Assembly: GCA_965228475.1 (NCBI GenBank)
Contig: OZ245817.1
Coordinates: 1,600,001 to 1,664,000, forward strand
Length of the DNA stretch: 64,000 bases
DNA from: Myxococcota bacterium
Lineage (GTDB): Bacteria > Myxococcota_A > UBA9160 > JAFDDA01
Direction of reading: 5' to 3'
A program made the translations under genes and the position numbers. Position 1 is the first letter of the stretch; the number at the start of each line of letters is the position of its first letter. The notes below the pieces were generated by a model. That model did not search any database and was not told the DNA's origin. It saw only the letters and a list, made by a program, of their open reading frames with translations. Positions 10,201 to 60,051 of the stretch are shown one piece after another.

Positions 10201-13200
10201 CGCGGTCGGCCGCATGCGCAGCGCGGGCGAGATCGAGCATGCCGCATCGCAGCGGGGCGAGGCGCCCGAGTTCACCGTGACCCTCGCCGGTGTCGGTACG
10301 GTTGGAGGCCGGCTCTTGTCGAGCGACGGCACGACCCCCGTCGAGGGCCGCGAGGTCCGCCTCGAGATGACGGGCGATTTCGTCCGGGACACCGCGACGG
10401 TCCTGAGCAGCGCCGACGGCAGCTTCGCCTTCGACGACGTGCCGGTCGGTGACTTCCGCCTGACGGCGACGGATGCGGCTCTCGCGGCGACGGCGAGCGG
10501 CACGATCGCGGTTCCGGGGGAGCATCGCGACCTCGACCTGGTGCTCTCCGCCAGCGGCAGCGTGGCCGGGCGCCTGCTGCGGGCCGACGGCAGCCCCGCG
10601 CCCGGTCAGGACGTGCTGCTCGCCTTCGTCCCGCCGTCCGGGCTGCTCGGCAGGGCGCTCGTCGAGACCGGCGCCGACGGCAGCTTCCAGTTCAACGAGG
10701 TTCCGGTCGGGCCGGTGTCCGTCGCCGTGGCGGCCCTCGGCTTCAGCGGCATCGTGAACCGCGACGCGGAGCTCGTGACCAACGGTGAGCTGCTCGACCT
10801 TGGCGACCTCACGCTCGACGAAGTCGAACCGGCCGTCGTCGACTCGGACCCGTTCCCCCAGGACGAAGACGTCCCGACCGACGTCCCGATCCGGATCACC
10901 TTCAGCGAGGCCCTCGCCCCGGAATCCGTCGACGAGAGCGGCATCTATCTCCGTTCCGTCGCCGGGGTCGTGCCCGCGGAAACGGTCCTGGTCGAGGACG
11001 ATGCGTCCGGCGAGCTGCGCCTCGTCGAGATCCGGCCCGATGCGGAGCTCGAGAGTGAGACGGCCTACGAAGCCGTGGTCCTCGCCGGGGAGTTGCGGGA
11101 TGCGCTCGGTGGCCTGATCGGCAGCGGGCCGCGGGACCTCGCCGGCCGTCCCCTGCGCGTTTCCGCGATCATTCCGTTCACGACCCGCGACTCCCGTCCG
11201 CCCGAGCGCCTCTCCTTCACCCCGGGCGCGGGCCAGATCCAGGTCGATCCGAGTGCGGTGATCCGGCTCTCCTACGACGAGCCGCTTCGCAGCGACGAGA
11301 TCGTCGTGACCCTGCGCGACGGCGGCGGTCAGGAGCTGCCGGGGCGTGTGGACGTCGGCGTCGGCCAGCAGGTGGTGGTCTTCACCCCGGACGCGTTCCT
11401 CGATCCGAACGCGCTCTACTCGGTGACGGTCGACGGCATCCGGGACCTCGCCGGAAACGCTGCCGTGGACCTGCCGCTCGAGCGGAGCTTCGCGACCCTC
11501 GACACGGTCGGGCCGACGATCTCCGAGCTGAGGGTCGTGGGCGGAGCCGCTCCGGTCGCCGGGGCGATCCTCCCGATCGAAGCGGTCCTGGCCCAGCCCG
11601 AGGCGGCGGCCTCGGTTCGCATGACCGCGGATCTCGTGGTCTTCGGGCAGAGCACGCCGGGCTCCCTCACGCTGCCCTACGAGGTCCCCGCCGACGGCCA
11701 GGTCACGATCCGGGGCATCGCCATCGATCGCTTCGGCAACGAGGGGCCGATCGGGCCCGAGCTCGTGCTCGACGTGGTTCCGAACCAGCCGCCCTCGGTG
11801 ATCTTCATGCCCGTCACGCCGCCCGGGGGCCCCGTCGCGACGGGCGAGACGCTCGAGGTCGAGGTGAGCGCGAGCGACGACGTCGGCGTCGTCGAGATCC
11901 GCGCCGCGGCCCAGGGAGCGTGCACGGCGCCGCTCGCGACGAGCGCCGGTGCGCCCATCCGGGTGACCTGCACGGTCGACCCGGAGGCCGGCCCGGAAGA
12001 TGCGATCGAGATCCTGGCCGAGGCGATCGACGGGGCCGGCGCTTCGAGCGGCGAGCAGGCCTTCGCGGTCGGGCTCGCCGACGGAACCGCGCCGACCGTC
12101 GCCATCGTGTCTCCGGGGGCGGACGAGGAGGTCGCCGCCGGGATGACGCTCTCCGTCGAGGTGGACGCCGCCGACCGCTTCGGCGTGACCGAGATCGTGC
12201 TCGAGGCGAGCGGTGCCCTCACCGAGCAGCAGACGATCACGCCGCCCGCGCCGGAGACCGAGGGCCGCTACGTCTTCGGCCTCGACGTCCCCGCCGAGCT
12301 CGACGCCGGCGAAGAGATCGTGCTCCTCGCGACCGCGCGGGATGCCGCCGGCTTCGAACGCTCGGCCGAGCTCCGCTTCCGCACGGCGGACCTCGTCGGC
12401 CCGACCCTCGTCGAGATCCTCCCGGTGCAGGACGCCCTCGATCGGTCCGCGGTGCCGGTGCTGCGCGCGCGCTTCGACGAGCCGATCGATCCGACCTCGC
12501 TCCCGATCGACGGCTTCGTCCTGGCGGAGGAGGGCGGACCGAATCTGGCGACCCACCTCGGGCTCGGCGACGACGGGCATACGCTCACCCTGCGGCCGCA
12601 GGCGCCGCTGGCCCTGGGCGGTCGCTACGAGTGGAACTTCGCCGGGGGCGTGACGGACCTCTCCGGGAACGTCCTCACGGCGACCGACGGCACGCCCTTC
12701 GTGGCGGTGGCGCAGGCCTTCACGGTCGGGACCGCGGACATCGTGGCGCCCGCGGACGGCACGGTGCTGATCGAGGGCGAGCCGCTCCAGCTCGCCGTCG
12801 ACGCAGCCCGCCTGCCGGGGACGCGACGCCTCACGTTCTTCGGGAACGCCGCCGAGCTCGGAAGCGACGAGTCCGAGCCCTTCGTGCTCGACGGCACCGT
12901 CCCGACCCAGGCCGACCTCGGCGGTGATACCTGGACCCTCGGCGCCGACGTGAACGGCGGCGACCTCGCAGCGGGCCGGCCGGTGAGCCTCGGCGGAGCG
13001 GGCGTTGCCTGGCGCGAGGTCGACCTCGGTGCGGTGGCCGGGCTCGAAGGCGTGGAGGTCGACCTCTCCGCCGACGCGGCCTTCGCGCTCCTCCTGGCCG
13101 AAGCGCCCTTCGACGAGAGCGACTTCGCCGGGAGCGGGCTGCCCGCCGGCTTCCGCAACGGTGCGATCGAGATCCATCGCAGCGTGGCGCCCGAGAACGG

Positions 13201-27277: not shown

Positions 27278-27346
27278 CCGCCCGGCGCGAGCGACCGCGC
27301 CGGCGCCCGGCCCGGAATCGTGCTCCGGCTTCGGGTAGGGTCCGGC

Positions 27347-28102
27347 ATGGCCCAAGGCGAGATCCTCTACGGCGTCCACCCGGTTCGGGAAGCCCTGCGC
27401 GCCCGCCGGCGCAAGCCCGTGCGGCTCCACGTGCGTTCGCGGATGCGGGAGGAGGTCGGGGACCTCGTCCGGCTGGCCCGGGAGATCGATCTGCCGGTGG
27501 TGGAGGTCGAGCCCGAGGCCCTGGTGCGTCTGGCCGGGGAGGAGGCGCGGACCCAGGGCGTGGTCCTCGAGGCGGGGCCGCTTCCGGAGGTCGAGCTCGG
27601 TGCCCTGGCCACGGACGGCTCGGACCAGGCCTGTCTGGTCGCCCTCGACGGGGTGGAAGACCCTCAGAACGTCGGTGCGATCGTCCGGGTCGCCGAATCC
27701 GCCGGGGTTACCGGGCTGATCCTCACGCGGCGGCATGCCCCGCCGCTGTCGCCCGCCCTGGCCCGGGCCAGCGCCGGGGCCATCGAGCATCTCCCGGTCG
27801 CCCGGGTCCCGAACCTGGCCCGGTCCCTCAAGTCCTTGAAAGCGAAAGAGTTCTGGGTCTTCGGGGGCGTCGCCGAGGGCGGCGAGGACCTGTTCGGGCT
27901 CCCCGACCGCCTGGCCTCGGGCAAGAAGATCGTGGTGGTCGGCGCGGAGGGGAAGGGGCTCCGGCCCTCGGTGCTCGCGGAGGTCGACCACCGGGTGCGG
28001 ATCCCCCTGGCCGGCCAGGTCCAATCCCTCAACGTCTCGACCGCGGCGGCGGTCCTGCTGTTCGAGCTGAGGCGCCGGGGCGGGGTCGGGCCGACCGGCT
28101 GA
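27347..28102 (+). CDS. rlmB: 23S rRNA (Gm2251) methyltransferase, TrmH/SpoU family
   Basis: YGVHPVREAL, LDGVEDPQNVGAIVR, GAEGKG and SLNVSTA motifs. Confidence 0.92.
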   Translation: MAQGEILYGVHPVREALRARRRKPVRLHVRSRMREEVGDLVRLAREIDLPVVEVEPEALVRLAGEEARTQGVVLEAGPLPEVELGALATDGSDQACLVALDGVEDPQNVGAIVRVAESAGVTGLILTRRHAPPLSPALARASAGAIEHLPVARVPNLARSLKSLKAKEFWVFGGVAEGGEDLFGLPDRLASGKKIVVVGAEGKGLRPSVLAEVDHRVRIPLAGQVQSLNVSTAAAVLLFELRRRGGVGPTG

Positions 28103-28788: not shown

Positions 28789-28864
28789 GCCCACGTAGCT
28801 CAGTCGGTAGAGCACGTCCTTGGTAAGGACGAGGTCAGCGGTTCAATCCCGCTCGTGGGCTCCA
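28789..28864 (+). tRNA. tRNA-Thr (GGT)
   Basis: Cloverleaf, anticodon loop TTGGTAA, CCA end. Canonical thrU-tyrU-glyT-thrT-tufB order. Confidence 0.97.
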
Positions 28865-28930
28865 CCGAAAGACGACCGCACCCGAGGGTGCAATGCCAGT
28901 GCGTGGCACAGCGAGGAGAAGAGGGATCCG

Positions 28931-30121
<1,191 letters not shown>

Positions 30122-30261: not shown

Positions 30262-30337
30262 AGGCGCGTAGCACAATTGGTAGTGCATCGGACTCCAAAT
30301 CCGGAGGTTGGGGGTTCAAGTCCCTCCGCGCCTGCCA
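30262..30337 (+). tRNA. tRNA-Trp (CCA)
   Basis: AGGCGCG stem, anticodon loop CTCCAAA, CCA end. Usual position before secE. Confidence 0.96.
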
Positions 30338-30364
30338 GCTTCGACCGGAGAGGAAAGGAACGAC

Positions 30365-30568
30365 ATGGCGAATCCTGCCGATTGGGTGCGTGACTCCCGA
30401 CAGTTCCTCTCCGAGGTGCAGGCGGAGTTCAAGAAGGTCACGTGGCCCAGCCAGAAGGAGTACGTGGGCGGGACCATCGGCGTGGTGGTGGTGGTCACGA
30501 TCGTGACGATCGTGTTGGGCTTGACGGACTTCGTCCTCGGCGGAGCCGTCAAGGCGATCCTTCCTTAG
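30365..30568 (+). CDS. secE: Preprotein translocase SecE
   Basis: [16 protein letters not shown] plus a TM segment. Confidence 0.95.
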
Positions 30569-45250: not shown

Positions 45251-45313
45251 CTCGCGGAGATCAACCGCCCCGCTGGCAAGACGGTCAGGGTGGCGAAAGG
45301 AAGAGGCGAAGGA

Positions 45314-46504
<1,191 letters not shown>

Positions 46505-46554
46505 CCACCCGAGGGTGGAACTTCGGATGGCTCGGCCATCCAGGAAAGACTGTT

Positions 46555-46872
46555 ATGGCTGACCTCGCACAGCAGAAGATCCGGATCCGGATGAAGGCGT
46601 ACGACTTCCGGCTGCTCGACCAGAGCGCGTCGGAGATCGTGGATACCGCCATCCGGACGGGCGCCCGGCTCGCCGGCCCCATTCCGCTTCCGACCACGAT
46701 CAACAAGTACACGGTCCTCCGGGGCCCGAACATCGACAAGAAGTCGCGCGAGCAGTTCGAGGTGCGCACGCACCGCCGGCTGATCGACATCCTGGAGCCG
46801 ACCCCGCAGACGGTCGACGCCCTGATGAAGCTCGAGCTCGCCGCCGGTGTCGACGTGGAGATCAAGCTCTAG
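46555..46872 (+). CDS. rpsJ: 30S ribosomal protein S10
   Basis: [10 protein letters not shown]...GPIPLPT...KKSREQFE. Confidence 0.98.
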
Positions 46873-46874
46873 CC

Positions 46875-47528
46875 ATGGCGACCCTCGACGTGAAAACCCT
46901 CGCCGGGAAGAAGAGCGGCACCATCGACCTCGACCCCGTCGTGTTCGAGGCCACGGTGAAGCCGCACCTCTTCCACGCGGAGGTCCGAAGGCAGTTGGCG
47001 GGACGCCGTGCGGGCACCCACGCCACCAAGAATCGCTCGCGCGTTTCGGGCGGCGGTGCCAAGCCGTTCCGGCAGAAGGGCACGGGCCGCGCCCGTGCCG
47101 GTACGACGCGTGCGCCCCAGTGGACGGGCGGCGGCGTCGTGTTCGGCCCGGTGCCGCGCAGCTACGACCACAAGCTTCCGAAGAAGATGCGCCGCGCGGC
47201 CCTCCGCAGCGCCGTCTCGGCACGCGTGGCCGAGCAGGCCGTGACGGTGGTCGACGCACTCGAGCTCGAAGCGGCCAAGACCCGCGAGCTCGTGGCGAAG
47301 CTCGGCGCCCTGGACCTCGCCGAGCGCTCGGTGCTGATCGTGATCGCCGAGGCCGACGAGAAGGTCGAGCGCGCTTCCCGGAACCTGCCGAACGTCGGTG
47401 CGATTCGCGCCGACGGCCTCAACGTCTACGACGTCCTGCGCCACGAGCATCTGCTCATGACCCAGGCCGGCGCCGAGGCGGTGGCCCGGCGGCTCGGCGA
47501 CTCCGCCGAGGAAGGGGCTGCATCGTGA
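46875..47528 (+). CDS. rplD: 50S ribosomal protein L4
   Basis: [20 protein letters not shown]...GGGVVFGP. Confidence 0.97.
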
Positions 47529-47812
47529 ACGTGCATCAAGTCATTCGCCGGCCGCTCGTCACGGAGAAGAGCAGCATCGGGCGCGAGGAGCAGAACCTCG
47601 TGACCTTTGCCGTCGCTCCCGACGCGAACAAGCCGGAGATCAAGCGGGCCGTCGAGTCGCTGTTCCAGGTGAACGTGCTCGAGGTCCGGACCATGCGGAT
47701 GCCCCGCAAGTCGCGCCGGGTGGGCGCGCACATGGGGCGCAAGCCGGAGTGGAAGAAGGCGATCGTGCGGCTGGCCGAAGGCCAGGCGATCGAATTCTTC
47801 GAAGGAGTCTAG
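47525..47812 (+). CDS. rplW: 50S ribosomal protein L23
   Basis: [10 protein letters not shown]...ANKPEIK...[12 protein letters not shown] overlap with rplD. Confidence 0.96.
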
Positions 47813-47813
47813 G

Positions 47814-48644
47814 ATGGCCGTCAAGAACTACCGGCCGATGACCCCCGGACGACGGGGCATGTCCGTCTCGGACTTCGCCGAGCTGACGCGGGGCAAGCCC
47901 GAGCGCTCGCTCGTCACCGGTCTCGTGAAGAAGAGCGGCGGGCGAAACAGCAACGGGCGGATCACGGCCTGGCACCGGGGCGGCGGGCACAAGCGCCGCT
48001 ACCGAAAGATCGACTTCCGCCGCGACAAGCTCGGCGTTCCGGCCAAGGTCGCTGCCATCGAATACGACCCGAACCGGTCCGCGAACATCGCGCTGCTGCA
48101 CTATGCCGACGGCGAGAAGCGCTACATCCTCTCGCCGACGGACCTCCGCGTCGGGGACACGATCTCCTCGGGGCCGGATGCCGAGGTTCGGCCGGGCAAC
48201 GCGATCCCGATCGCCCGCATCCCGCTCGGCACCGTGCTGCACGCCATCGAGATGAAGCCCGGCAAGGGCGCCCAGCTCGTGCGGGCCGCCGGCGGCTCAG
48301 CGCAGCTCATGGCTCGCGAAGGCCGCTACGCCACGCTGCGTCTCCCGAGCGGTGAGCACCGCAAGATCCTCGTCGATTGCATGGCGACCATCGGCCAGGT
48401 CGGAAACCTGGACCACGAGAACCAGAGCATCGGCAAGGCGGGCCGCTCCCGTTGGAAGGGCAAGCGCTCGAACGTGCGCGGCGTCGCCATGAACCCGGTC
48501 GATCACCCGATGGGAGGCGGCGAGGGCCGCACTTCGGGCGGCCGCCAGCCTTGTACGCCCTGGGGCAAGCCGACCAAGGGCTACAAGACGCGCAGCAACA
48601 AGAGTTCCGATCGGTACATCGTCAAGAAGCGAGGGAAGAAGTAA
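47814..48644 (+). CDS. rplB: 50S ribosomal protein L2
   Basis: EYDPNRSA and [17 protein letters not shown]. Confidence 0.99.
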
Positions 48645-48919
48645 TGGCCCGTTCGCTCCGCAAGGGCCCGTTCGTCGAGCCGAGCCTCCAGCGCAAGGTC
48701 GACAAGCTGCAGGAATCCGGTTCGAAGCAGGTCATCCGCACCTGGTCGCGGCGCTCGATGATCGCCCCGGATTTCGTGGGACTCACGTTCCACGTGCACA
48801 ACGGGAAGCTGTTCATTCCCGTCTTCGTGACGGAGAACATGGTCGGTCATCGCCTCGGCGAGTTCTCTCCGACCCGCAAGTTCACCGGCCACGCGACGGA
48901 CAAGAAGGTCAAGGGCTGA
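48644..48919 (+). CDS. rpsS: 30S ribosomal protein S19
   Basis: [10 protein letters not shown]...TWSRRS...[11 protein letters not shown]. Confidence 0.98.
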
Positions 48920-49269
48920 TGGCGGCTGCGAAGGCGAGACTCAGGAACTACCGCGTCAGCACGCGCCGCGCGCGCCTGCTGGCCGACCAGATCCGCGGCA
49001 AGCAGGTCGAGGAGGCGCTCGCGCTGCTCGATCTCTCGACGCGCCGGTTCGCCCGGCCGCTCGCGAAGCTCGTGCGTTCGGCCGTGGCCAACGCGCAGGA
49101 GAGCAACGACCGCGACAAGGCCGGCATCGACGTCGACAACCTGGTCGTGAGTCAGATCAGCGTGGACGAGGGCGCCAGCATGTGGCGCATCAAGGCGCGT
49201 GCGCAGGGCCGGGCGGCCTGGATCCAGAAGCGCACGAGCCACGTGCAACTCGAGCTCGAAGAGCGTTAG
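48919..49269 (+). CDS. rplV: 50S ribosomal protein L22
   Basis: LVRSAVANA...RAQGRA...KRTSH, plus synteny. Confidence 0.96.
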   Translation: MAAAKARLRNYRVSTRRARLLADQIRGKQVEEALALLDLSTRRFARPLAKLVRSAVANAQESNDRDKAGIDVDNLVVSQISVDEGASMWRIKARAQGRAAWIQKRTSHVQLELEER

Positions 49270-49278
49270 GGGCGATTC

Positions 49279-49962
<684 letters not shown>

Positions 49963-49965
49963 GCC

Positions 49966-50382
49966 ATGCTCCAACCGAAGAAGGTCAAGCACCGCAAGCA
50001 GCACAAGGGCCGCATCCGTGGAAAGGCGCTCCGTGGCAACACGATCGCCTTCGGCGAATACGGCCTGCAGACGCTCGAGGCGGGGCGCATCACGGCCCGC
50101 CAGATCGAGGCGGCCCGGATCGCGATGACCCGCCACGTGAAGCGCGGCGGGAAGGTCTGGATCCGGCTCTTCCCGGACAAGCCCGTGACGAAGAAGCCCG
50201 CCGAAACCCGGATGGGTAAGGGCAAGGGCAACCCGGAAGAGTGGGTGGCGATCGTTCGCCCCGGCAAGATGCTCTACGAGATGGAGGGTGTGCCGGTGGA
50301 TATCGCGCGCGCGGCCCTGCGCCTGGCGGCCCACAAGCTGCCCGTCGCCACCAAGATCGTGGTGCGCGAGGAGGGCGTATGA
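49966..50382 (+). CDS. rplP: 50S ribosomal protein L16
   Basis: [11 protein letters not shown]...ETRMGKGKG. Confidence 0.98.
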
Positions 50383-50579
50383 AGGCGTCGGAGATTCGTG
50401 AGCTTTCCGAGGAGGAACTCGTGGCCAAGGCCGACGAGATCCGCGGTGAGCTCTTCAACCTCAAGGTGAAGCATGCCACCGGGCAGCTCGAAGACACCGC
50501 CCGGCTGGCGCACCTGCGCCGCGACGTGGCGCGGCTCGAGACGGTGGCCCGAGAGCGGCGGGAGGCGACGAAATCATGA
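50379..50579 (+). CDS. rpmC: 50S ribosomal protein L29
   Basis: [10 protein letters not shown]...[10 protein letters not shown]. Confidence 0.95.
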
Positions 50580-50839
50580 GCGACCGGGGGATGCGCCGGA
50601 CCCTCGTCGGGACGGTGGTCAGCGACAAGATGGACAAGACCGTGGTGGTCCGCGTCGATCGGCTGGTCAAGGACCGGACCTACAAGAAGTACGTCAACCG
50701 CTTCACGCGGTACATGGCGCACGACGAGGCGAATACGTGCGCGGTCGGAGACCGCGTCCAAATCATCGAGCACCGTCCGCTTTCGAAGAAGAAGCGGTGG
50801 AAGGTGCAGTCGACGCTGACCAAGGCCGTCGGCGTCTAG
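50576..50839 (+). CDS. rpsQ: 30S ribosomal protein S17
   Basis: [14 protein letters not shown]...RPLSKKKRW. Confidence 0.97.
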
Positions 50840-50854
50840 GCGAGGGAACGGGAG

Positions 50855-51223
50855 ATGATCCAAGCAGAGTCGACGCTTCAGGTCGCCGACAACTCCGGTG
50901 CCCGCAAGCTCTCCTGCATCAAGGTGCTGGGTGGCTCGAAGCGCAAGTACGCCTCGATCGGCGACATCGTGGTCGTCTCCGTCAAGGAGGCGATCCCGAA
51001 CGCTCGCGTGAAGAAGGGTGAGGTGCGCAAGGCCGTGGTCGTGCGGACGGCGAAGGGGATCGGTCGCGCCGACGGCTCGATCATCCGCTTCGACGACAAC
51101 GCCGCTGTCCTGATCGACAACCAGCGCGAGCCCGTCGGGACGCGCATCTTCGGCCCCGTCGCTCGCGAGCTCCGTGGGCGCCGCTTCATGAAGATCATTT
51201 CGCTCGCGCCGGAGGTCCTGTGA
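50855..51223 (+). CDS. rplN: 50S ribosomal protein L14
   Basis: VADNSGA...[12 protein letters not shown]...SLAPEVL. Confidence 0.99.
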
Positions 51224-51765
51224 TGGTCCCCCGTCTGCTCGAACGCTACCGCGGCGACACCACCGGCAAGCTCCGCGAGGAGTTCGGCTACGCGAACCCG
51301 CACCAGGTGCCGCGCCTCGACAAGATCGTGGTGAACATGGGTCTCGGTGAGGCCGTCGCCAACCCGAAGATCATCGAGCGCGCCGTCGAGGAGCTGGCCG
51401 AGATCACGGGCCAGAAGCCCGTCGTTCGCCGCGCTCGCAAGTCGATCGCCAACTTCAAGCTCCGCCAGGGGCAGGCGATCGGGGCGTCGGTGACGCTGCG
51501 CGGCGTCCGCATGTGGGAGTTCTACGACCGCCTCGTCAGCACCGCGCTGCCGCGCGTGCGGGACTTCCAGGGCGTCTCCCCGAAGGCCTTCGACGGCCGA
51601 GGCAACTACACCCTCGGGGTTCGTGAGCAGATCATCTTCCCCGAAGTGGACTACGACAAGGTCGAGCGGATCACCGGCCTGAACGTGACGGTGTGCACGA
51701 CGGCCCGGACGGACAACGAGGCGCGGGCGCTGCTCGCCCACCTCGGAATGCCGTTCCGGAACTAG
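51223..51765 (+). CDS. rplE: 50S ribosomal protein L5
   Basis: ITGQKP...LPRVRDFQG...[12 protein letters not shown] overlap with rplN. Confidence 0.98.
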
Positions 51766-51812
51766 GCCGCCGAGATCACCCGCGAGAACGACCTGCGAGA
51801 AGGAACGAAGCC

Positions 51813-52208
51813 ATGATGACCGACCCCATCTCCGACATGCTGACGCGCATCCGCAACGCGCAGCGCGCTCGCCATGCCGAGGTCCGGCTGCCCGCCTCGA
51901 AGCTGAAGCTCGCCGTCGCCCAGGTGCTCCAGGCCCAGGGCTACGTGACCGACGTCGGCCTCGACGAGACCGCGGACAAGCCCACCCTGCGCATGGGCAT
52001 GCGCTACCGCGACGACGGCCGCGAGATGATCGACGGTCTTTCCCGGATCTCGCGCCCGAGCCGCCGCGTGTACGTGGCCGCCGAGGAAGTGCCCAAGGTC
52101 CGCAACGGCCTCGGCATCGCGATCCTGTCCACCTCCCAGGGGGTGATGACCGACCAAGACGCCCGCGAGAAGAACGTGGGCGGCGAAGTGCTCTGCGAGG
52201 TCTGGTAG
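51813..52208 (+). CDS. rpsH: 30S ribosomal protein S8
   Basis: MTDPISDMLTRIRNA...STSQGVMT...GGEVLCEVW. Confidence 0.98.
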   Translation: MMTDPISDMLTRIRNAQRARHAEVRLPASKLKLAVAQVLQAQGYVTDVGLDETADKPTLRMGMRYRDDGREMIDGLSRISRPSRRVYVAAEEVPKVRNGLGIAILSTSQGVMTDQDAREKNVGGEVLCEVW

Positions 52209-52210
52209 CC

Positions 52211-52750
52211 ATGTCCCGCGTAGGAAACGCACCCATCTCCCTGCCGAAGGGAGTCGATCTGGCGCTCACCGAGGGCGAGATGCGCGTGAAGGGCCCGAAG
52301 GGGACGCTCGCGCGCCCGCTGCCGGCCGGGATCGCCCTCGACGTCAGCGACGGAACCGCGACGCTCAAGCGCCCGGACGATTCGAAGACGGCCCGCTCGA
52401 TGCACGGCCTCGCTCGCGCGCTGCTGAACAACATGGTCACGGGCGTGACCGACGGATTCACGAAGGTCCTCGAGATCCAGGGCGTCGGTTACCGCGCTGC
52501 AGCGAGCGGCAAGAACCTGAACCTCGTGCTCGGCTTCTCGCACCCGGTGGACATGCCGATTCCCGAGGGCATCAAGGTCTCCGTCGAAAACAACACCCTC
52601 ATCACCATCGAGGGGATCGACAAGGAGAAGGTCGGACAGTTCGCAGCGGACGTCCGCAAGTGGCGGCCGCCGGAGCCCTACAAGGGCAAGGGCATCCGTT
52701 ATCAGGGTGAGCAGATCCGCCGCAAGGTCGGCAAGGCAGGAGCGGCCTAA
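52211..52750 (+). CDS. rplF: 50S ribosomal protein L6
   Basis: MSRVG...LGFSHP...PEPYKGKGIRY. Confidence 0.98.
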   Translation: MSRVGNAPISLPKGVDLALTEGEMRVKGPKGTLARPLPAGIALDVSDGTATLKRPDDSKTARSMHGLARALLNNMVTGVTDGFTKVLEIQGVGYRAAASGKNLNLVLGFSHPVDMPIPEGIKVSVENNTLITIEGIDKEKVGQFAADVRKWRPPEPYKGKGIRYQGEQIRRKVGKAGAA

Positions 52751-52752
52751 CG

Positions 52753-53124
52753 ATGGCGCGCAAGATCGAAAACGACAAAGTCCGGCGCCGCGTCGCGCGC
52801 AGAACCCGTGTGGCCAAGGGCCTGCGGACGAGCGAGCGGGTGGCATTGACCGTCTACCGCAGCAACAAGCACATCTACGCGCAGCTCGTGGATGCGGCGA
52901 GCGGGAAGACGCTGACCTCCGTTTCGACGCGGACGCAGGCCCTCGCGGGCGAGGCGGCCTCGGCGAGCGGGATCGAAGCCGCGAAGAAGGTGGGCCTGGC
53001 GATCGCCGAGCGCGCCCGCGAGCGGCAGATCGAACGGGTCGTCTTCAACCGGAACGGTTTCCTCTATCACGGGCGCGTGAAGGCCCTCGCAGAGGCCGCT
53101 CGCGAAGCGGGCCTCCAGTTCTGA
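52753..53124 (+). CDS. rplR: 50S ribosomal protein L18
   Basis: RSNKHIYAQ...[19 protein letters not shown]. Confidence 0.97.
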
Positions 53125-53134
53125 GGACTTTTCA

Positions 53135-53632
53135 ATGGCATTCGCTGCTGTGACACAGATCAATCCCAACGACCTCGACCTCAAGGATCGCGTGGTCCAC
53201 ATCAACCGCGTCGCGAAGGTGGTGAAGGGCGGTCGCCGCTTCTCCTTCAGCGCGCTGGTGGTGGTCGGCGACGGCGCCGGCATCGTGGGCGTCGGCCTCG
53301 GGAAGGCCGGCGAGGTCCCGGAGGCGATCCGCAAGGGCGTCGAGCGGGCGCGCAAGACCCTGCTCGAGGTCCCGCTCGTCGAGGGGACGCTCCCGCACGA
53401 GATCATCGGCCGCTACGGCGCGGGTGCCGTCCTGCTCCGCCCGGCCTCGCCCGGTACCGGCGTGATCGCCGGCGGCGGCGTGCGTGCGGTGCTCGAGTCG
53501 GCCGGCGTTCGCGACGTGCTGACCAAGACCCTCGGAACGAACAACCCGCACAACGTGGTGAACGCCACGATGCAGGGGCTCCGCGAGCTGCGCGACCCGG
53601 AAGTGCGGCGACGGGAGCTGCTCGGAGCATGA
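53135..53632 (+). CDS. rpsE: 30S ribosomal protein S5
   Basis: [16 protein letters not shown]...GTGVIAGG. Confidence 0.98.
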
Positions 53633-53808
53633 GCCAGAAGATCTCGGTGAAGCTCGTGAAGAGCCCGATCGGATACGACCGGCGGCAGCGGGCGACGCTG
53701 CGCGGGCTCGGCCTGCGCCGCCTGCAGCAGACCGTCGAAGTGAACGACGAGCCCGCGATCCGCGGGATGATCGACAAGGTGAAGCACCTCGTCGTGGTGG
53801 AGGGCTAG
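53629..53808 (+). CDS. rpmD: 50S ribosomal protein L30 (not in the ORF track)
   Basis: Translated by hand: [31 protein letters not shown]...[15 protein letters not shown]. Confidence 0.96.
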
Positions 53809-53810
53809 TC

Positions 53811-54272
53811 ATGCTCGACCGATTGCAGCCGCGTCCCGGCGCCCGCAAGAAGCCGATCCGCGTCGGACGTGGCCATGCCTCGGGCAAGGGCAAGACCTGT
53901 GGCCGCGGCGTGAAGGGCCAGGGCCACCGCTCGGCCGGTCGCGAGGTGAAGATCTTCTTCGAAGGCGGGCAGATGCCGATGACCCGCCGCCTGCCGAAGC
54001 GCGGCTTCTGGCACGAGAAGAAGCCCGTCGAGGTGGTGAACCTCGCCGCGCTCGCCGCCCTGGGCGACGGCGCGACGGTGGACCGCGCGACGCTCGCCGC
54101 CAAGGGCCTCATCCGCGGCGCTGCGCCCACGGTGAAGCTCCTCGGTGAGGGCGAGGCCCCGAAGAACCTGACGGTGAAGCTCCAGGCCGTCAGCGCGGGT
54201 GCGAAGGAAAAGGTCGAAGCGGCCGGTGGCAGCGTCGAGATCGTCGCCGCCGAGGAGAAGAAGCAGTCGTGA
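53811..54272 (+). CDS. rplO: 50S ribosomal protein L15
   Basis: RVGRGHASGKGKTCGRG...FEGGQMP.TRRLPKRGF. Confidence 0.97.
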   Translation: MLDRLQPRPGARKKPIRVGRGHASGKGKTCGRGVKGQGHRSAGREVKIFFEGGQMPMTRRLPKRGFWHEKKPVEVVNLAALAALGDGATVDRATLAAKGLIRGAAPTVKLLGEGEAPKNLTVKLQAVSAGAKEKVEAAGGSVEIVAAEEKKQS

Positions 54273-55579
54273 CCGGTGGCGTGCAGAACATCGGGCGGAT
54301 CCCGGAGCTCCAGAAGCGGATCCTCTTCACGTTCGGGATGCTGATCGTGTACCGGATCGGTGCGCACATCGTCACGCCCGGAGTGAACCCCGACGTCATC
54401 CGCGCCTTCTTCGAGCAGATGAGCGGCAGCATCTTCGGGATCTTCAACCTGTTTTCGGGTGGCGCGATGGAGCAGCTCTCCATCTTCGCGCTGGGCATCA
54501 TGCCCTACATCTCGGCGTCGATCATCTTCCAGCTGCTGACCGCGGCCGTCCCGGCCCTCGAACGCCTGAAGCAGGAAGGCGAGCAGGGCCGCAAGAAGAT
54601 CACCCAGTACACGCGCTACGCGACGATCGTGCTGGCCCTGTTCCAGAGCATCCTGATCGCGACCGCTCTCGAGGGTGGGCAGTTCGGCGCCGGCGCCGTC
54701 TCGGAGCCCGGCTGGGGCTTCCGGCTGCTGTGCATGATCACGCTCACCACGGGCACGGCCTTCATCATGTGGCTCGGCGAGCAGGTCACCGAGCGTGGCA
54801 TCGGCAACGGCATCTCGCTCGTGATCTTCGCCGGCATCATCGTCGCCATCCCGGGTGCGATCGGGCAGCTCGGCGAGCTCGTCCGGACGGACCAGTTCAC
54901 GCTGCTCCGGGCGCTCTTCCTGATCGCCTTCATGATCGTAGTGACGGGCTTCGTGGTCTTCTTCGAGCGCGGCCAGCGGCGGATCCCGATCCAGCACGCG
55001 CGCCGGGTCGTCGGCAAGAAGGTGACCCAGGGGGGGATGAGCTACTTCCCGCTGCGCGTGAACACCGCCGGGGTGATTCCGCCCATCTTCGCCTCGTCGA
55101 TCCTGATGCTCCCGCTGACGGTCACGAGCTACGTCGAGTCCCCCCAGATCCAGGCCTTCGTCGACGAGTGGCTCTACTTCGGCGGCTTCACGTACAACCT
55201 CGTCTACGTCGCCCTGATCATCTTCTTCGCGTACTTCTACACGGCGATCATGATCGATCCGAACGACGTGGCCGACAACATCAAGAAGTTCGGCGGCTAC
55301 ATCCCCGGGATCCGGCCCGGCAAGAAGACGGCCGAGTACATCAACAAGGTGCTCACGCGTCTGACGCTCGCCGGGGGGATCTACGTCTCCGCCGTGTGCG
55401 TGTTGCCGGTGATTCTCGCGACCTGGGCGAACGTGACGTTCTTCTTCGGCGGCACGGCGCTATTGATCGTCGTGGGCGTGGCCCTCGACACGATCGGGCA
55501 GGTCGAATCGCACCTGGTGTCCCGCCAGTACGAAGGGTTCACCTCGGGCACGCGGCAGCGCGGGAGGCTCGGCCGATGA
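54269..55579 (+). CDS. secY: Preprotein translocase SecY
   Basis: SIFALGIMPYISASII, WLGEQVTERGIGNG and IPGIRPG motifs. Confidence 0.99.
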   Translation: MTGGVQNIGRIPELQKRILFTFGMLIVYRIGAHIVTPGVNPDVIRAFFEQMSGSIFGIFNLFSGGAMEQLSIFALGIMPYISASIIFQLLTAAVPALERLKQEGEQGRKKITQYTRYATIVLALFQSILIATALEGGQFGAGAVSEPGWGFRLLCMITLTTGTAFIMWLGEQVTERGIGNGISLVIFAGIIVAIPGAIGQLGELVRTDQFTLLRALFLIAFMIVVTGFVVFFERGQRRIPIQHARRVVGKKVTQGGMSYFPLRVNTAGVIPPIFASSILMLPLTVTSYVESPQIQAFVDEWLYFGGFTYNLVYVALIIFFAYFYTAIMIDPNDVADNIKKFGGYIPGIRPGKKTAEYINKVLTRLTLAGGIYVSAVCVLPVILATWANVTFFFGGTALLIVVGVALDTIGQVESHLVSRQYEGFTSGTRQRGRLGR

Positions 55580-56148
55580 GCGCGCGACGTCTCCTGCTGC
55601 TCGGCCCGCCCGGAGCCGGAAAGGGCACCCAGGCCCAGTTCCTGATCGAGCGGCTCTCCATTCCCCAGATCTCGACGGGCGACATGCTGCGCGCGGCGGT
55701 CGCCGCCGGTTCGCCGGTGGGGGAGCAGGCCAAGGGCTTCATGGACCGCGGCGAGCTCGTGCCGGACGAGGTCGTGATCGGCGTGGCCCGCGAGCGCCTC
55801 GAACAGGACGACTGCCAGACCGGCTTCATCCTCGACGGCTTCCCCCGCACGGCGGCCCAGGCCGAGGCCCTCGACCGCATGCTCCAGGAGCTCGGCGTCG
55901 AGCTCGAGCGCTGCGTGGCCATCACCGTCGACGTCGACGAGCTGGTCCAGCGGCTCCTGGCCCGCGCCGAGAAGGAAGGCCGCGCCGACGACAACGAAGA
56001 GACGATCCGCACGCGGATGTCGGTCTACGAGAACCAGACCCGGCCGCTGCTCGACTACTACGAAGCGAAGGGAATCCTCGCGAAGGTCGATGGGCAGGGC
56101 TCGATCGAGGAGATCGCCGAGCGCGTCTCCGAGGCGGTGGCCGGATAG
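55576..56148 (+). CDS. adk: Adenylate kinase (short-LID type)
   Basis: GPPGAGKGTQ, ISTGDMLR, LDGFPRT and GRADDN motifs. Confidence 0.97.
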   Translation: MSARRLLLLGPPGAGKGTQAQFLIERLSIPQISTGDMLRAAVAAGSPVGEQAKGFMDRGELVPDEVVIGVARERLEQDDCQTGFILDGFPRTAAQAEALDRMLQELGVELERCVAITVDVDELVQRLLARAEKEGRADDNEETIRTRMSVYENQTRPLLDYYEAKGILAKVDGQGSIEEIAERVSEAVAG

Positions 56149-56150
56149 CG

Positions 56151-56939
56151 ATGGCGTACGGAAACCGCATCACGATCAAGACCCGCTCCGAGCTCGAGAA
56201 GATGCGCGAAGCGGGGCGCCACGTGGGCGAGATCCTGCTCGAGGTCCGCGAGCGGGCCCGTTCCGGCATGACCACCGGGGAGCTCAACGACCTGGCGAAG
56301 CGCTGCATCGAGCGGCGCGGCGTGGTGTCGTCCTTCCTCGACTACGCCCCGGGCGGCGCGCCGCCGTACCCGGCCGTGATCTGCATCTCCGCGAACGAGG
56401 AGATCGTCCACGGCATCCCGGGGCCGCGGGAGCTGAAGGACGGCGACCTGTTGAGCCTCGACTTCGGCATCCACGTCGACGGATTCCATGGCGACTCGGC
56501 CGTGACGATCCCGATCGGCGACATCGGCCCGGAGAGCGAGCGCCTCATCGAGGCCACGCGGGACGCCCTCTACAAGGGCATCGCGCAGATGGTCCCGGGC
56601 AACCGCCTCTCCGACATCGGCCACGCCATCCAGGAGCGTGCGGAGTCCGAGGGCTTCGGCGTGGTGCGCCAGTTCGTGGGGCACGGCATCGGCCGCCTTC
56701 TGCACGAGCCGCCGCAGATTCCGAACTACGGCAACCCGGGCAAGGGCCCGCGGCTGCGAACGGGCATGGTCTTCGCGATCGAGCCCATGGTTTGCATGGG
56801 GAGCTACGATGTCCGCATGCTCGACGACGAGTGGACCGCGGTCACCGCGGATGGCTCGCTGTCGGCCCATTTCGAACACACCATCCTGATCACCGATGAC
56901 GGCCCGGAGGTCCTGACCGCCGTGCCGGGATCGCACTGA
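56151..56939 (+). CDS. map: Type I methionine aminopeptidase
   Basis: [23 protein letters not shown] and SAHFEHT motifs. Confidence 0.97.
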
Positions 56940-56956
56940 TCGGGAAGGGGAGAGAC

Positions 56957-57070
56957 ATGAAGGTCAGAGCCTCGGTGCGCAAGATGTGTGACAAGTGCCG
57001 GATCATCAAACGCCGCGGAGTCGTGCGCGTGATCTGCGACAACCCCAAGCACAAGCAGCGCCAGGGTTAG
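56957..57070 (+). CDS. rpmJ: 50S ribosomal protein L36 (Zn-ribbon form; not in the ORF track)
   Basis: [37 protein letters not shown]. Confidence 0.97.
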
Positions 57071-57079
57071 GAGGAACGG

Positions 57080-57460
57080 ATGGCACGCATCGCCGGAATC
57101 GACTTGCCGCGTCAGAAGCGGATCGTGATCGCCCTGACGTACATCTACGGCGTCGGGAACACGTCCGCCGCGAAGATCTGCGCGAGCTCCGGAGTGGATC
57201 CGGATACGAAGACCGAGCAGCTCTCCGAGGGCGACGTCATTCAGCTCCGCGAAGTCATCGAGCGTGACTTCAAGGTCGAGGGTGATCTGCGGCGCGAAGT
57301 CAGCCAGCAGATCAAGACCCTGATGGATCTGGGCTGCTACCGGGGGCTCCGCCACCGGCGCGGTCTGCCGGTGCGCGGCCAGCGCACCCACACGAACGCC
57401 CGCACCCGGAAGGGTCCGCGCAAGACGGTCGCCGGGAAGAAGCCGGCCGGGAAGAAGTAG
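57080..57460 (+). CDS. rpsM: 30S ribosomal protein S13
   Basis: MARIAG...[18 protein letters not shown]. Confidence 0.98.
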
Positions 57461-57466
57461 ACAAGC

Positions 57467-57850
57467 ATGGTCAAGAAGACGGGCAAGAAGAAGGTCAAGA
57501 AGAACGTCCAGAACGGGATGGCGCACATCCAGTCGACGTTCAACAACACGATCATCACGATCACGGACGTGGCCGGCAACGCGCTTTGCTGGGCGACGGC
57601 GGGGCAGCAGGGCTTCAAGGGCTCGCGCAAGTCGACGCCGTTCGCCGCGCAGGTGGCCGCCGAGCAGTGTGCGAAGAAGGCCGTCGACCACGGCATCCGC
57701 TCGCTGGGCGTCTACGTCAAGGGCCCGGGTGCCGGGCGCGAGACGGCGCTGCGCGCGCTCCAGGCCGCGGGCATCCGCATCACGCTCATCCAGGACGTTA
57801 CTCCGATCCCGCACAACGGCTGCCGCCCGCCCAAGCGGCGCCGGGTGTAG
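57467..57850 (+). CDS. rpsK: 30S ribosomal protein S11
   Basis: STFNNT...[18 protein letters not shown]. Confidence 0.98.
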
Positions 57851-57865
57851 GGAGGAAGGTTTCCA

Positions 57866-58492
57866 ATGGCTCGATACGTCGGTTCCGTTTGTCGTCTCTG
57901 CCGCCGGGAAGGCACCAAGCTCTTCCTCAAGGGCGATCGCTGCTTCAGTGAGAAGTGCGCGGTCGATCGGCGCAACTATCCCCCGGGCCAGCATGGCCAG
58001 GGGCGCCCGCGGTTCTCGGACTACGGGGTGCAGCTGCGTGAGAAGCAGAAGGTGAAGCGCATGTACGGCCTGCTGGAGCACCAGTTCCGCCGCACGATGA
58101 AGGAAGCCAGCCGCATGAAGGGGCTGGCGGGTGAGAACCTGCTCTCGCTCCTCGAGCGGCGGCTCGACAACGTCGTGTTCCGGCTTGGCTTCGCGACGTC
58201 CCGCTCGGAAGCGCGCCAGCTCGTGAAGCACGGTCACTTCAACGTCAACGGACGCCGCGCGACGATTCCGTCGATGCGCATGCGCCCGGGGACGAAGGTC
58301 GAGGTGCGGCAGAAGTCTCGCGAGGTCACGCGGATCGCGGGGGCTCTCGAAGCGCTCGAGGAGCGCAGCCTCCCGCAGTGGCTCGAGATCGACAAGGCCA
58401 GCTTCGAGGGCACCGTCAAGGCGCTCCCGACGCGCGAGGACATCACCCTGCCGATCGAAGAGCAGCTGATCGTCGAGCTGTACTCGCGCTAG
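57866..58492 (+). CDS. rpsD: 30S ribosomal protein S4 (Zn-finger form)
   Basis: [17 protein letters not shown]...[10 protein letters not shown] and IVELYSR. Confidence 0.98.
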
Positions 58493-58568
58493 CGGCGCCC
58501 GGAACCCGCGCCCGGGCGACCGGCGCGCGCAAGAAACATCCACTTCGGAGCACAAGGGGGCTCGAGGC

Positions 58569-59603
58569 ATGGAAGACATGAACCAGGAACTGATGGCTGC
58601 AAACTGGCGGACGCTGATCCGGCCGCGCCGGCTCGAGGTCGAAGAACCGAGCCAGACGGGTGCCTACGGGCGATTCGCCTGTGAGCCGCTCGAGCGCGGC
58701 TTCGGCATCACGCTCGGGAACGCGCTGCGCCGCGTGCTGCTCTCCTCGCTCCAGGGCGCGGCGATCACCTCGGTGCGCATCGAGGGCGTGCTCCACGAGT
58801 TCTCGACCATCCCGGGCGTCCACGAGGACGTGGCGGACGTGATCCTGAACCTGAAGGAGGTCCGGCTGAGCCTGAACTCCCTCGAGTCGAAGGTGCTGCG
58901 CATCCGCAAGAGCGGACCCGGGACGATCGTCGCCGGCGACCTCGCCGCGGATGATTCCTCCGTCGAGGTGAAGAACCCCGACCTCAAGATCGCGACGCTC
59001 GCCGACGATTCCGACGTCGAGATCGAGATCACCGTGGCCAACGGCAAGGGCTACGTGCTCGCCGAGAACAACAAGACCGAGGAGATGCCGATCGGGACCA
59101 TTCCGATCGACTCGATCTTCTCGCCGGTCCACCGTGTCAACTACACGGTGAACCCGGCCCGCGTCGGCCGGGAGACGGACTTCGACCGCCTGACGCTCGA
59201 CGTCTGGACCGACGGCACGCTGAACCCGGCGGACGCCGTGGCCTACGCCGCGAAGATCCTGAAGGATCAGCTCACCATCTTCATCAACTTCGAAGAGCCC
59301 GAAGAGGTGTCGCTGCCCGCCGCCGACGAGCCCGAGCCGCTCAACCCGAACCTGTTCCGCTCGGTCGACGAGCTGGAGCTCTCGGTGCGGTCGGCCAACT
59401 GTCTGCAGAACGCCAACATCCGCTACATCGGTGAGCTCGTGCAGCGCACCGAGGCGGAGATGCTCAAGACGAAGAACTTCGGCCGGAAGTCGCTCAACGA
59501 GATCAAGGAGGTCCTCGCCTCCATGGAGCTCGCTCTCGGCACGAAGCTCGACGGCTTCCCGCAGCGCACCGACATCGAGAAGATGCGGGAGCGCGAGGTC
59601 TAG
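58569..59603 (+). CDS. rpoA: RNA polymerase alpha subunit
   Basis: [17 protein letters not shown]...LSVRSANCL...[10 protein letters not shown]. Confidence 0.99.
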
Positions 59604-59607
59604 ACCG

Positions 59608-60051
59608 ATGCGACATGCCAAGCGCGGGGGCAAGCTCAACCGGACGAGCGCCCACCGAAAAGCCATGCTCCGGAATCTGGTGACGTCGCTGTTCGAGCAC
59701 GAACGCGTCGAAACCACCGACGCCAAGGCCAAGGAGCTGCGCCGGATCGCGGACCGGATGATCACCCTCGGCAAGCGCGGGGATCTTCATGCGCGGCGCC
59801 AGGCCCTGTCCGTGATCCACGGCAAGGACGTGACGGCCAAGGTCTTCGGGGAGCTCGCGGAACGCTTCCGCGAGCGGCCGGGCGGCTACACCCGCGTGTT
59901 GAAGACGCGCGTGCGGCCGGGCGACGCGGCCTCGATGTCGATCGTCGAACTCGTCGAGGGCATGGCGAAGCCGGAGCCCACCGAGAAGGCGAGCAAGAAG
60001 AAGGCGTCGAAGAAGAAGGCCAGCAAGAAGGCCGCCGCCAAGGACGAGTAG
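59608..60051 (+). CDS. rplQ: 50S ribosomal protein L17 with Lys/Ala/Ser-rich tail
   Basis: [17 protein letters not shown]...RPGGYTR. Confidence 0.97.

Follow-up and report, generated by a model that had tools for sequence, protein, structure and literature searches.

An S10-spc-alpha cluster of ribosomal protein genes without rplC, rplX, rpsN and infA: probable stepwise erosion in an uncultured bacterial order

The S10-spc-alpha cluster of ribosomal protein genes is among the most conserved of bacterial gene arrangements, and serves as a block of syntenic markers when uncultured genomes are placed. In the 64,000-nucleotide stretch analysed here (the window; bases 1,600,001–1,664,000 of contig OZ245817.1, assembly GCA_965228475.1), this cluster lacks rplC, rplX, rpsN and infA, the genes for ribosomal proteins L3, L24 and S14 and for initiation factor IF-1, each of which occurs as a single copy elsewhere in the genome. 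What the window shows is very probably an inherited condition: in an uncultured order, probably within the Myxococcota, the cluster has eroded stepwise and in a lineage-specific manner. As the four departures differ in phylogenetic depth, there was no single selective removal; this is an old, stable gene-order state reached in steps, and neither a coordinated removal nor a regulatory device.

The cluster occupies 46555–60051, with all genes on the + strand in the canonical order rpsJ to rplQ and a Pfam match for each of them (Table 1). An original prediction, made from the letters alone, had described a canonically ordered cluster lacking these four genes, with seamless junctions devoid of pseudogene remnants, and had further noted the absence of rpmG (L33) upstream. 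All of this was confirmed by the Pfam matches and the junction sequences. At the places of rplC, rplX, rpsN and infA there are, respectively, a 2-nt spacer, an overlap of 1 or 4 nt, a 47-nt spacer and a 17-nt spacer, and every spacer at the four junctions is too short to contain a gene remnant. Upstream, tRNA-Trp runs straight into secE (30262..30568, +), with no rpmG in a slot that is occupied in many bacteria.

That one cluster should have lost four essential genes cleanly is in itself a ground for suspicion, and the gaps could in principle have been produced by assembly, binning or editing of the record, though no evidence of this was found. Logan contigs from four public runs (X1–X4) belonging to three studies, one of which runs may be the source sample, were placed along positions 46400–57200. 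All four junctions are bridged by contigs of all four runs (records 5, 7 and 8 of X1; 11, 14 and 16 of X2; 17, 19 and 24 of X3; 26, 27 and 32 of X4), with no differences in X1–X3; the X4 contigs come from a marine metagenome and represent a slightly different strain. Independent assemblies of 18 genomes of the same order show the same L3 and L24 junctions, 14 of them show the S14 gap, and IF-1 is absent from all 15 that reach L36. In addition, the missing genes are all present elsewhere on the same single contig. The contigs and the assemblies of the relatives refute an artefact, which is left with next to no probability.

The genome, a single contig of 5,006,157 bases, was searched with Pfam, and one match each was found genome-wide for L3, L24, L33, S14 and IF-1. 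The predicted relocation, in the sense of genes taken out of the cluster yet kept, is thus borne out; every gene was recovered, though neither clustered nor duplicated, as the four loci are unlinked (0.16, 1.40, 3.31 and 4.95 Mb) and only L24 and L33 lie together. The L3 protein (214 aa) scores 48.8 bits against PF00297 (cut-off 22), a level typical of the whole phylum, and aligns from end to end with L3 of other phyla; a search of the ESM Atlas with it gave generic L3 clusters alone, of no taxonomic use. L24 is a single match to PF17136 (76.5 bits, cut-off 27), with a KOW-like N-terminus evident in the sequence, and IF-1 is the one match to PF01176 among 15 candidates (70 bits, cut-off 30.2). 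S14 (PF00253, 86.7 bits; 101 aa) has two isolated cysteines and no CxxC pair, and is therefore of the long, zinc-free form. L33 is likewise without cysteines, and the L36 inside the cluster carries a Cys/His motif.

The new neighbourhoods are conserved among relatives of the same order, of which 30, from 12 coded families, were searched; those genomes that lacked a match are 68–91% complete. L3 was matched in 29 of the 30, and a gene read as rlmE lies directly behind it in 29 of 30 fetched loci (that of the window's genome included), the thirtieth being cut by a contig end; neither S10 nor L4 stands beside L3 in any of these 30. Four metagenome-assembled genome (MAG) loci with NCBI rank Myxococcota contain the same rplC–rlmE pair, with 62–64% L3 identity, and form the basis of the probable assignment to the Myxococcota. 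L24 was matched in 26 relatives, with rpmG directly behind it in 25 of the 26 loci and one locus cut, and most rplX–rpmG loci share a dehydrogenase-like gene upstream, and a ferredoxin gene and aroE downstream. That L24 landed beside a pre-existing rpmG was also considered, and the sister-order rpmG, which has different neighbours, gives no decision. A single IF-1 match was found in each of 29 relatives, 78–93% identical to the protein of the window's genome, and an acetyltransferase-like open reading frame (ORF) follows infA in 26 of the 29 loci. S14 behaves differently in being matched once in each of 27 relatives, as 21 full-length long forms away from the cluster and six short forms between L5 and S8, which with the window's genome makes 22 long outside and six short inside; its neighbours in the window's genome are shared only with two genomes of its own family.

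The four gaps were then placed on the phylum, using L14 coordinates from 151 genomes and the cluster region of 60 of them: 18 belong to the same order, four to the sister order (f13), and 38 to other families, each family giving one genome and f15 two additional ones, with gene order read from tblastn with the window proteins and from gap sizes. L3 lies outside the cluster nearly phylum-wide. Of the 57 loci in which both S10 and L4 were located, 54 have them 2–325 nt apart, leaving no room for L3; L3 stands between S10 and L4 in three loci (families f18, f27 and f30), and an f23 locus shows L3–L4 with S10 undetected upstream. Among the 151 genomes, eight have L3 4.2–4.7 kb 5′ of L14 on the same strand, all of them from f18, f23, f27 and f30, and in a ninth, G062 of f30, the cluster is split over contigs and S10–L3–L4 is seen in locus L285. 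A branch with a support of 100 sets these four families apart from the rest in a phylogeny of 20 concatenated cluster proteins (FastTree, 61 rows, 3310 columns), rooted at the midpoint only. Outside the phylum, S10 and L3 are adjacent in 73 of 73 loci, with L4 next in 72, in a sample, fetched with the L3 query, that is biased and mostly Bacillota.

The other three departures are shallower. The loss of IF-1 from the cluster is class-wide, with no in-cluster gene in the 15 same-order or the three sister-order loci that reach L36, and with one in 19 of the 38 loci of other families. L24 has left the cluster in this order only: in all 18 same-order loci the L14–L5 gap measures between -1 and 12 nt, against 321–668 nt in 41 of the 42 others, the exception being an f36 locus with a 162-nt gap and no L24 match, and L24 was detected in the cluster in four of four sister-order and 34 of 38 other loci. 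S14 is patchy even within the order, where the L5–S8 gap is 13–46 nt, with no S14, in 14 of 18 loci, and a short CxxC...CxxC S14 is kept in the remaining four. The in-cluster S14 is present in all four sister-order loci, and absent, with a gap of 28–127 nt, from five of the 38 others (f29, f33, f37, f38 and f47). The survey of related genomes thus speaks against the joint, selective removal that had been proposed. As a separate observation, family f39 holds one genome (G089, locus L316) with L3 at the opposite end of this cluster, ~0.9 kb behind rpoA, and another (G163) in which it lies elsewhere, beside IMP dehydrogenase.

A similar arrangement was seen in the Bdellovibrionota. The L3 loci (L040 and L041) of a Bdellovibrionales MAG and of Bacteriovorax stolpii are without S10 and L4, and the clusters of these two genomes (L351 of G167 and L352 of G168) have S10–L4 gaps of 45 and 28 nt and L5–S8 gaps of 24 and 14 nt, no IF-1 before L36, and L24 in place, so that three of the window's four gaps are common to both genomes checked (two of two for L3). 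One of the two genomes has a long S14 ~1 kb behind L17. Departure of L3 from the S10 operon may represent a rare genomic event common to most Myxococcota and the Bdellovibrionota. The stand-alone L3 of Bacteriovorax is followed by a gene that appears to be pseudouridine-synthase-like, from an HRLD motif read in its sequence.

Two of the genes were not simply moved. Every readable in-cluster S14 of the relatives is short, with CxxC...CxxC (four cysteines), exactly one S14 was matched in 146 of the 151 genomes, and two were matched in none. The S14 state is therefore strictly either/or, and patchy even inside families: the short zinc-ribbon protein of the cluster is replaced by a long zinc-free form encoded elsewhere. 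For IF-1 the evidence for replacement is suggestive rather than firm. The IF-1 of the window's genome is 35–48% identical to the in-cluster IF-1 of the same phylum, the in-cluster proteins being very alike mutually, and it does not group with these canonical proteins, in which the pattern LPNAMFRVEL...GKMRMHFIRILPGD is seen. Ten further genomes comprised three with IF-1 in the cluster only, five with it outside only, and two (G058 and G103) with both types. In a tree of 34 rows, a branch of 0.97 with an SH-aLRT support of 98 lies between 14 out-of-cluster proteins (from this order, the sister order, G058, G067, G093 and G103) and 20 canonical ones; the canonical side includes the out-of-cluster gene of G123, the in-cluster proteins of G058, G103 and G053 have terminal branches of 1.2–3.3, and the alignment has only 69 columns, with a tool warning of long branches. 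These sequences suggest that the canonical in-cluster IF-1 was displaced by a divergent second type.

From the phylogenetic distribution we infer an order of events. The essential genes would have exited one by one, probably by a route known from other bacteria: a second copy, or another form, would arise or be present already elsewhere, and the gene in the cluster would afterwards be cleanly deleted. L3 would have left first, in almost the whole phylum, to head what is now the rplC–rlmE pair. The canonical in-cluster IF-1 would then have been replaced by the divergent second type in the whole class, and L24 would have moved at the base of the order to its present position 2 nt 5′ of rpmG. Lastly, the short zinc-ribbon S14 of the cluster would have been lost in those members of the order with a long zinc-free S14 elsewhere.

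The case that the displaced genes are native has to be weighed against xenologous displacement, in which foreign or anciently diverged versions of L3, and possibly of L24, would have ousted the native genes of the cluster, as appears to have happened to S14 and IF-1. The L3 of the window's genome is ~40–41% identical to the in-cluster L3 of its own phylum, against 45–52% to that of other phyla. In a single-gene L3 tree (FastTree, 125 rows, 206 columns), the out-of-cluster L3 of the phylum groups with two Bdellovibrionota and one Actinomycetota L3 (support 85), and a Desulfuromonadales L3 joins the in-cluster proteins of f23, f27 and f30 (support 97), so that gene transfer may be part of the history of L3. 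Set against displacement, the deep split has a support of only 85, from one gene of 206 columns analysed with FastTree, and the Actinomycetota protein falls on the out-of-cluster side. For L24, displacement would fit the identity of ~42% between the protein of the window's genome and that of the sister-order clusters, as compared to 74% for L14 and 57% for S17; against it, L24 generally evolves fast. A branch with a support of 99 sets the out-of-cluster L24 proteins apart, which amounts to one change, in a tree that has no outgroup, from which 15 in-cluster loci were dropped when the motif used failed to find the ORF, and in which the L24 of the order sits in an unresolved comb with that of the sister order. 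Xenologous displacement of L3 or L24 is, on balance, unlikely.

The groupings in the L3 tree count against stepwise erosion nonetheless, and they are not the only points to do so. The midpoint root of the phylum tree nests the clan with L3 in the cluster, instead of placing it at the base, and a nested clan would need several independent exits of L3, or its re-entry. No sampled genome has two copies of S14, L3 or L24, leaving the duplicated intermediate unseen for these three. The independent regulation of the displaced genes, discussed below, is drawn from DNA alone. With these points included, stepwise and lineage-specific erosion is still very probably what the window displays.

L3 and L24 are the assembly initiators of the E. 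coli 50S subunit, and the original prediction held that the genes, these two above all, had been removed, possibly to a separately regulated locus gating ribosome assembly or allowing an alternative ribosome composition. In favour of such a gate, neither L3 nor L24 lies in the cluster, both belong to small operons that are conserved within the order, and L3 is paired with rlmE, of a 23S rRNA methyltransferase family; RlmE acts late in 50S maturation in E. coli. In other parts of the phylum, the partner of L3 is a pseudouridine-synthase/methyltransferase fusion. Both genes also have promoter-like, conserved hexamers of their own: TCGACA and CTCCTA(T) lie 5′ of rplC in 75% and 61% of the relatives' upstream regions, and (G)TTGACG lies 5′ of rplX in 67%. 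A promoter-like TTGCAG...TATAAA is found upstream of rpsN in the window's genome.

The remaining evidence runs the other way. L3 left nearly phylum-wide and L24 in this order only, so that they were not removed together, and there are four unlinked loci instead of one. The upstream regions of the four genes share no k-mer beyond one G+C-rich hexamer: the best 6-mer in all four sets, CGGGCC (0.32 against a shuffle maximum of 0.27), was rejected as G+C background, and the best common 7-mer reached 0.11 against 0.13 in the shuffled control. Rfam gave no ribosomal leader, either for the four displaced loci at E up to 1 (one chance-level sRNA match) or for the whole window at gathering score (seven tRNAs only). 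Each displaced gene is the sole copy, so the ribosome composition is fixed, not switchable, and an alternative composition is impossible. With no second copies and no shared upstream motif, nothing therefore supports an assembly gate or alternative ribosomes; the genes are essentially scattered singly, with no sign of common regulation, and the gate is very improbable.

One of the conserved new neighbourhoods, rplC–rlmE, has an unusual junction. The name rlmE derives from the motifs DLGCWPGGW and RSRAAYKL read in the ORF, with orthologues identified by tblastn, and we take the ORF behind rplC to resemble E. coli RlmE. Beyond the order, the pair also occurs in four of four sister-order genomes, two f15 genomes, f26, f29, f35, f37, f41, f43, f45 and f49. 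In other clades L3 is found between a GYF/zinc-ribbon protein and a convergent dapF, or between an Ig-like protein and IMP dehydrogenase. In two f15 loci (L292 of G141 and L328 of G117), the gene behind L3 fuses an RluA-type pseudouridine synthase to a PF10672 SAM methyltransferase, which again places L3 beside RNA-modifying enzymes, and in G141 the gene for ribosomal protein L19 is divergent upstream of L3.

In the window's genome (4950846–4952105; 1207–2466 of locus L001), rlmE lies in frame behind the TAG of rplC, with no ATG, GTG or TTG before the conserved N-terminal block. Across 35 junctions (31 of this order and four of the sister order), the 15 codons upstream of a conserved tyrosine contain ATG, GTG or TTG in seven, only CTG, ATT, ATC or ATA in 11, and none of these in 17, so that a canonical start is lacking in 28 of 35. 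By our reading, ACG stands 2–3 codons before the tyrosine in 12 start-less junctions, where others have ATG or GTG; further codons at this position are CTG, ATT/ATA and GTC. Spacers are mostly 47–562 nt at the ATG/GTG junctions, with one of 17 nt, and mostly 5–26 nt at the start-less ones; about half of the relatives combine a missing canonical start with such a short spacer. Stop-codon readthrough giving an L3–RlmE fusion was rejected as a general mechanism, as only ~7 of ~23 start-less junctions are in frame, as expected by chance. The arrangement suggests that translation of rlmE is coupled to that of rplC through reinitiation by the terminating ribosome. If so, RlmE production would be confined, at a low ratio, to ribosomes fresh from completing L3, and an enzyme of rRNA modification would be tied to the making of a protein that acts early in 50S assembly; should near-cognate starts be used, this would be a natural case of reinitiation-dependent expression.

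For operon evolution, the cluster documents a dated succession in which essential genes left cleanly, two apparently through replacement by a different protein form. The lineage is relevant to binning and marker-based trees, where tools expect L3 (outside the block nearly phylum-wide), L24, S14 and IF-1 on one scaffold. Worth attention are the rplC–rlmE unit with its proposed coupling, the second type of IF-1, and the departure of L3 that the Bdellovibrionota have in common with this lineage. The combined proposal, that L3 was captured in a translationally coupled unit with RlmE, that its exit is common to both phyla, and that the second IF-1 displaced the canonical one, is advanced tentatively and is rather doubtful as a whole.

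Turning to the rest of the window, its G+C content is ~65–75%, and the + strand run that ends in the cluster consists of four tRNAs, tuf, tRNA-Trp, secE, nusG, rplK, rplA, rplJ, rplL, rpoB, rpoC, rpsL, rpsG, fusA and a second tuf. The two tuf copies (28811–30121 and 45290–46504, +) are 15 kb apart, and the contigs of many relatives start ~4.3–4.6 kb 5′ of L14, i.e. at tuf, which suggests that the duplicate breaks short-read assemblies at that point. A SpoU-family RNA 2′-O-methyltransferase gene (27278–28102, +) lies just 5′ of the tRNA-Thr/Tyr/Gly/Thr–tuf block, as a further RNA-modification gene beside translation genes. The first part of the window (1–16189, +) holds two very large ORFs: an RHS-repeat protein at 1–4269 that runs off the window start, and a 4021-aa protein with CarboxypepD_reg, Big_5, Big_7 and TSP3 repeats, likely a surface protein.

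Table 1. Features of the cluster in the window, and positions of the displaced genes on the genome contig.
Feature	Numbering	Position	Strand	Evidence or context
tRNA-Trp	window	30262-30337	+	ARAGORN
secE	window	30284-30568 (frame)	+	Pfam SecE; directly after tRNA-Trp
tuf copy 2	window	45290..46504	+	Pfam GTP_EFTU + D2 + D3; directly 5′ of S10
rpsJ (S10)	window	46555..46872	+	Pfam PF00338, E 1.1e-34
Junction 1, usual place of rplC (L3)	window	46873..46874	+	2-nt spacer
rplD (L4)	window	46875..47528	+	Pfam PF00573, E 6.6e-69
rplW, rplB, rpsS, rplV, rpsC, rplP, rpmC, rpsQ	window	47525..50839	+	Pfam L23, L2, S19, L22, S3, L16, L29, S17; canonical order
rplN (L14)	window	50855..51223	+	Pfam PF00238, E 2.6e-55; stop 51221-51223
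Junction 2, usual place of rplX (L24)	window	L14/L5 overlap, 4 or 1 nt	+	sequence ctgTGATGg
rplE (L5)	window	51220..51765	+	Pfam L5, L5_C; start GTG 51220 or ATG 51223
Junction 3, usual place of rpsN/rpsZ (S14)	window	51766..51812	+	47-nt spacer
rpsH, rplF, rplR, rpsE, rpmD, rplO	window	51813..54272	+	Pfam S8, L6, L18, S5, L30, L15
secY, adk, map	window	54269..56939	+	Pfam SecY, ADK, Peptidase_M24
Junction 4, place of infA (IF-1) in many bacteria	window	56940..56956	+	17-nt spacer, Map to L36
rpmJ (zinc form), rpsM, rpsK, rpsD, rpoA, rplQ	window	56957..60051	+	Pfam L36, S13, S11, S4, RpoA, L17
rpsN (S14)	genome	159,697-160,002	-	alone
rplX (L24)	genome	1,403,101-1,403,427	+	2 nt 5′ of rpmG
rpmG (L33)	genome	1,403,430-1,403,600	+	2 nt behind L24 stop; then ferredoxin-like gene, aroE
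infA (IF-1)	genome	~3,308,845-3,309,075	-	alone
rplC (L3)	genome	4,950,846-4,951,490	+	directly 5′ of gene read as rlmE/ftsJ

Compared to the canonical S10-spc-alpha cluster of the E. coli and B. subtilis type, the window has a run of 27 genes, rpsJ to rplQ, that keeps to the usual order, secY, adk and map included, preceded by the str and rpoBC operons, and differs in lacking rplC, rplX, rpsN and infA. S14, L33 and L36 exist as zinc-ribbon (C+) and zinc-free (C-) forms, and Makarova and colleagues in 2001, as well as later work, reportedly described these forms together with Zur-regulated switching between paralogues. The likeness is that the S14 and L33 of the window's genome are without a cysteine motif, and its L36 and the in-cluster S14 of its relatives are with one; the difference is that no genome has a pair of forms, leaving nothing to switch, as paired paralogues of the Zur type are absent both from the window's genome (one S14 and one L33 match) and, for S14, from the 146 genomes with a single match.

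The spacing of rplC and rlmE, 5–26 nt after the stop in most genomes of the order, resembles that of translational coupling by termination–reinitiation, the subject of PMC6728339 and PMC10666635, which PMC12548453 describes as most efficient at such short distances. It differs in that 28 of 35 rlmE junctions have no ATG, GTG or TTG, and near-cognate starts were not found by a term search in the review PMC12548453.

No description of Myxococcota clusters that lack rplC or rplX turned up in the literature collection searched. Lineage-specific layouts are known from elsewhere, with Leptospira providing another (PMC2481283), and the closest parallels come from sections of PMC8046335 on operon change. 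According to these, rpsN was deleted cleanly from the spc operon in Leuconostocaceae, with a long form (rpsN2) elsewhere, and duplication followed by in-cluster deletion occurred for rplJL and secY. The Leuconostocaceae loss is matched in the window, where the short in-cluster S14 is gone, a long S14 outside is the sole copy, and the junction is clean; about half of the Firmicutes genomes carry both S14 forms in that account, as against 0 of 146 in this phylum. The same sections count rpmG, adk, map and infA among the ancestral, though variable, members of the cluster, and describe their loss from the secE and spc operons in Gammaproteobacteria. The absence of infA and rpmG from the window is of the same kind, whereas adk and map are kept, and the sole IF-1 is a divergent protein instead of the canonical one moved. 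The state of the window is thus a more extensive form of a known erosion of the cluster.

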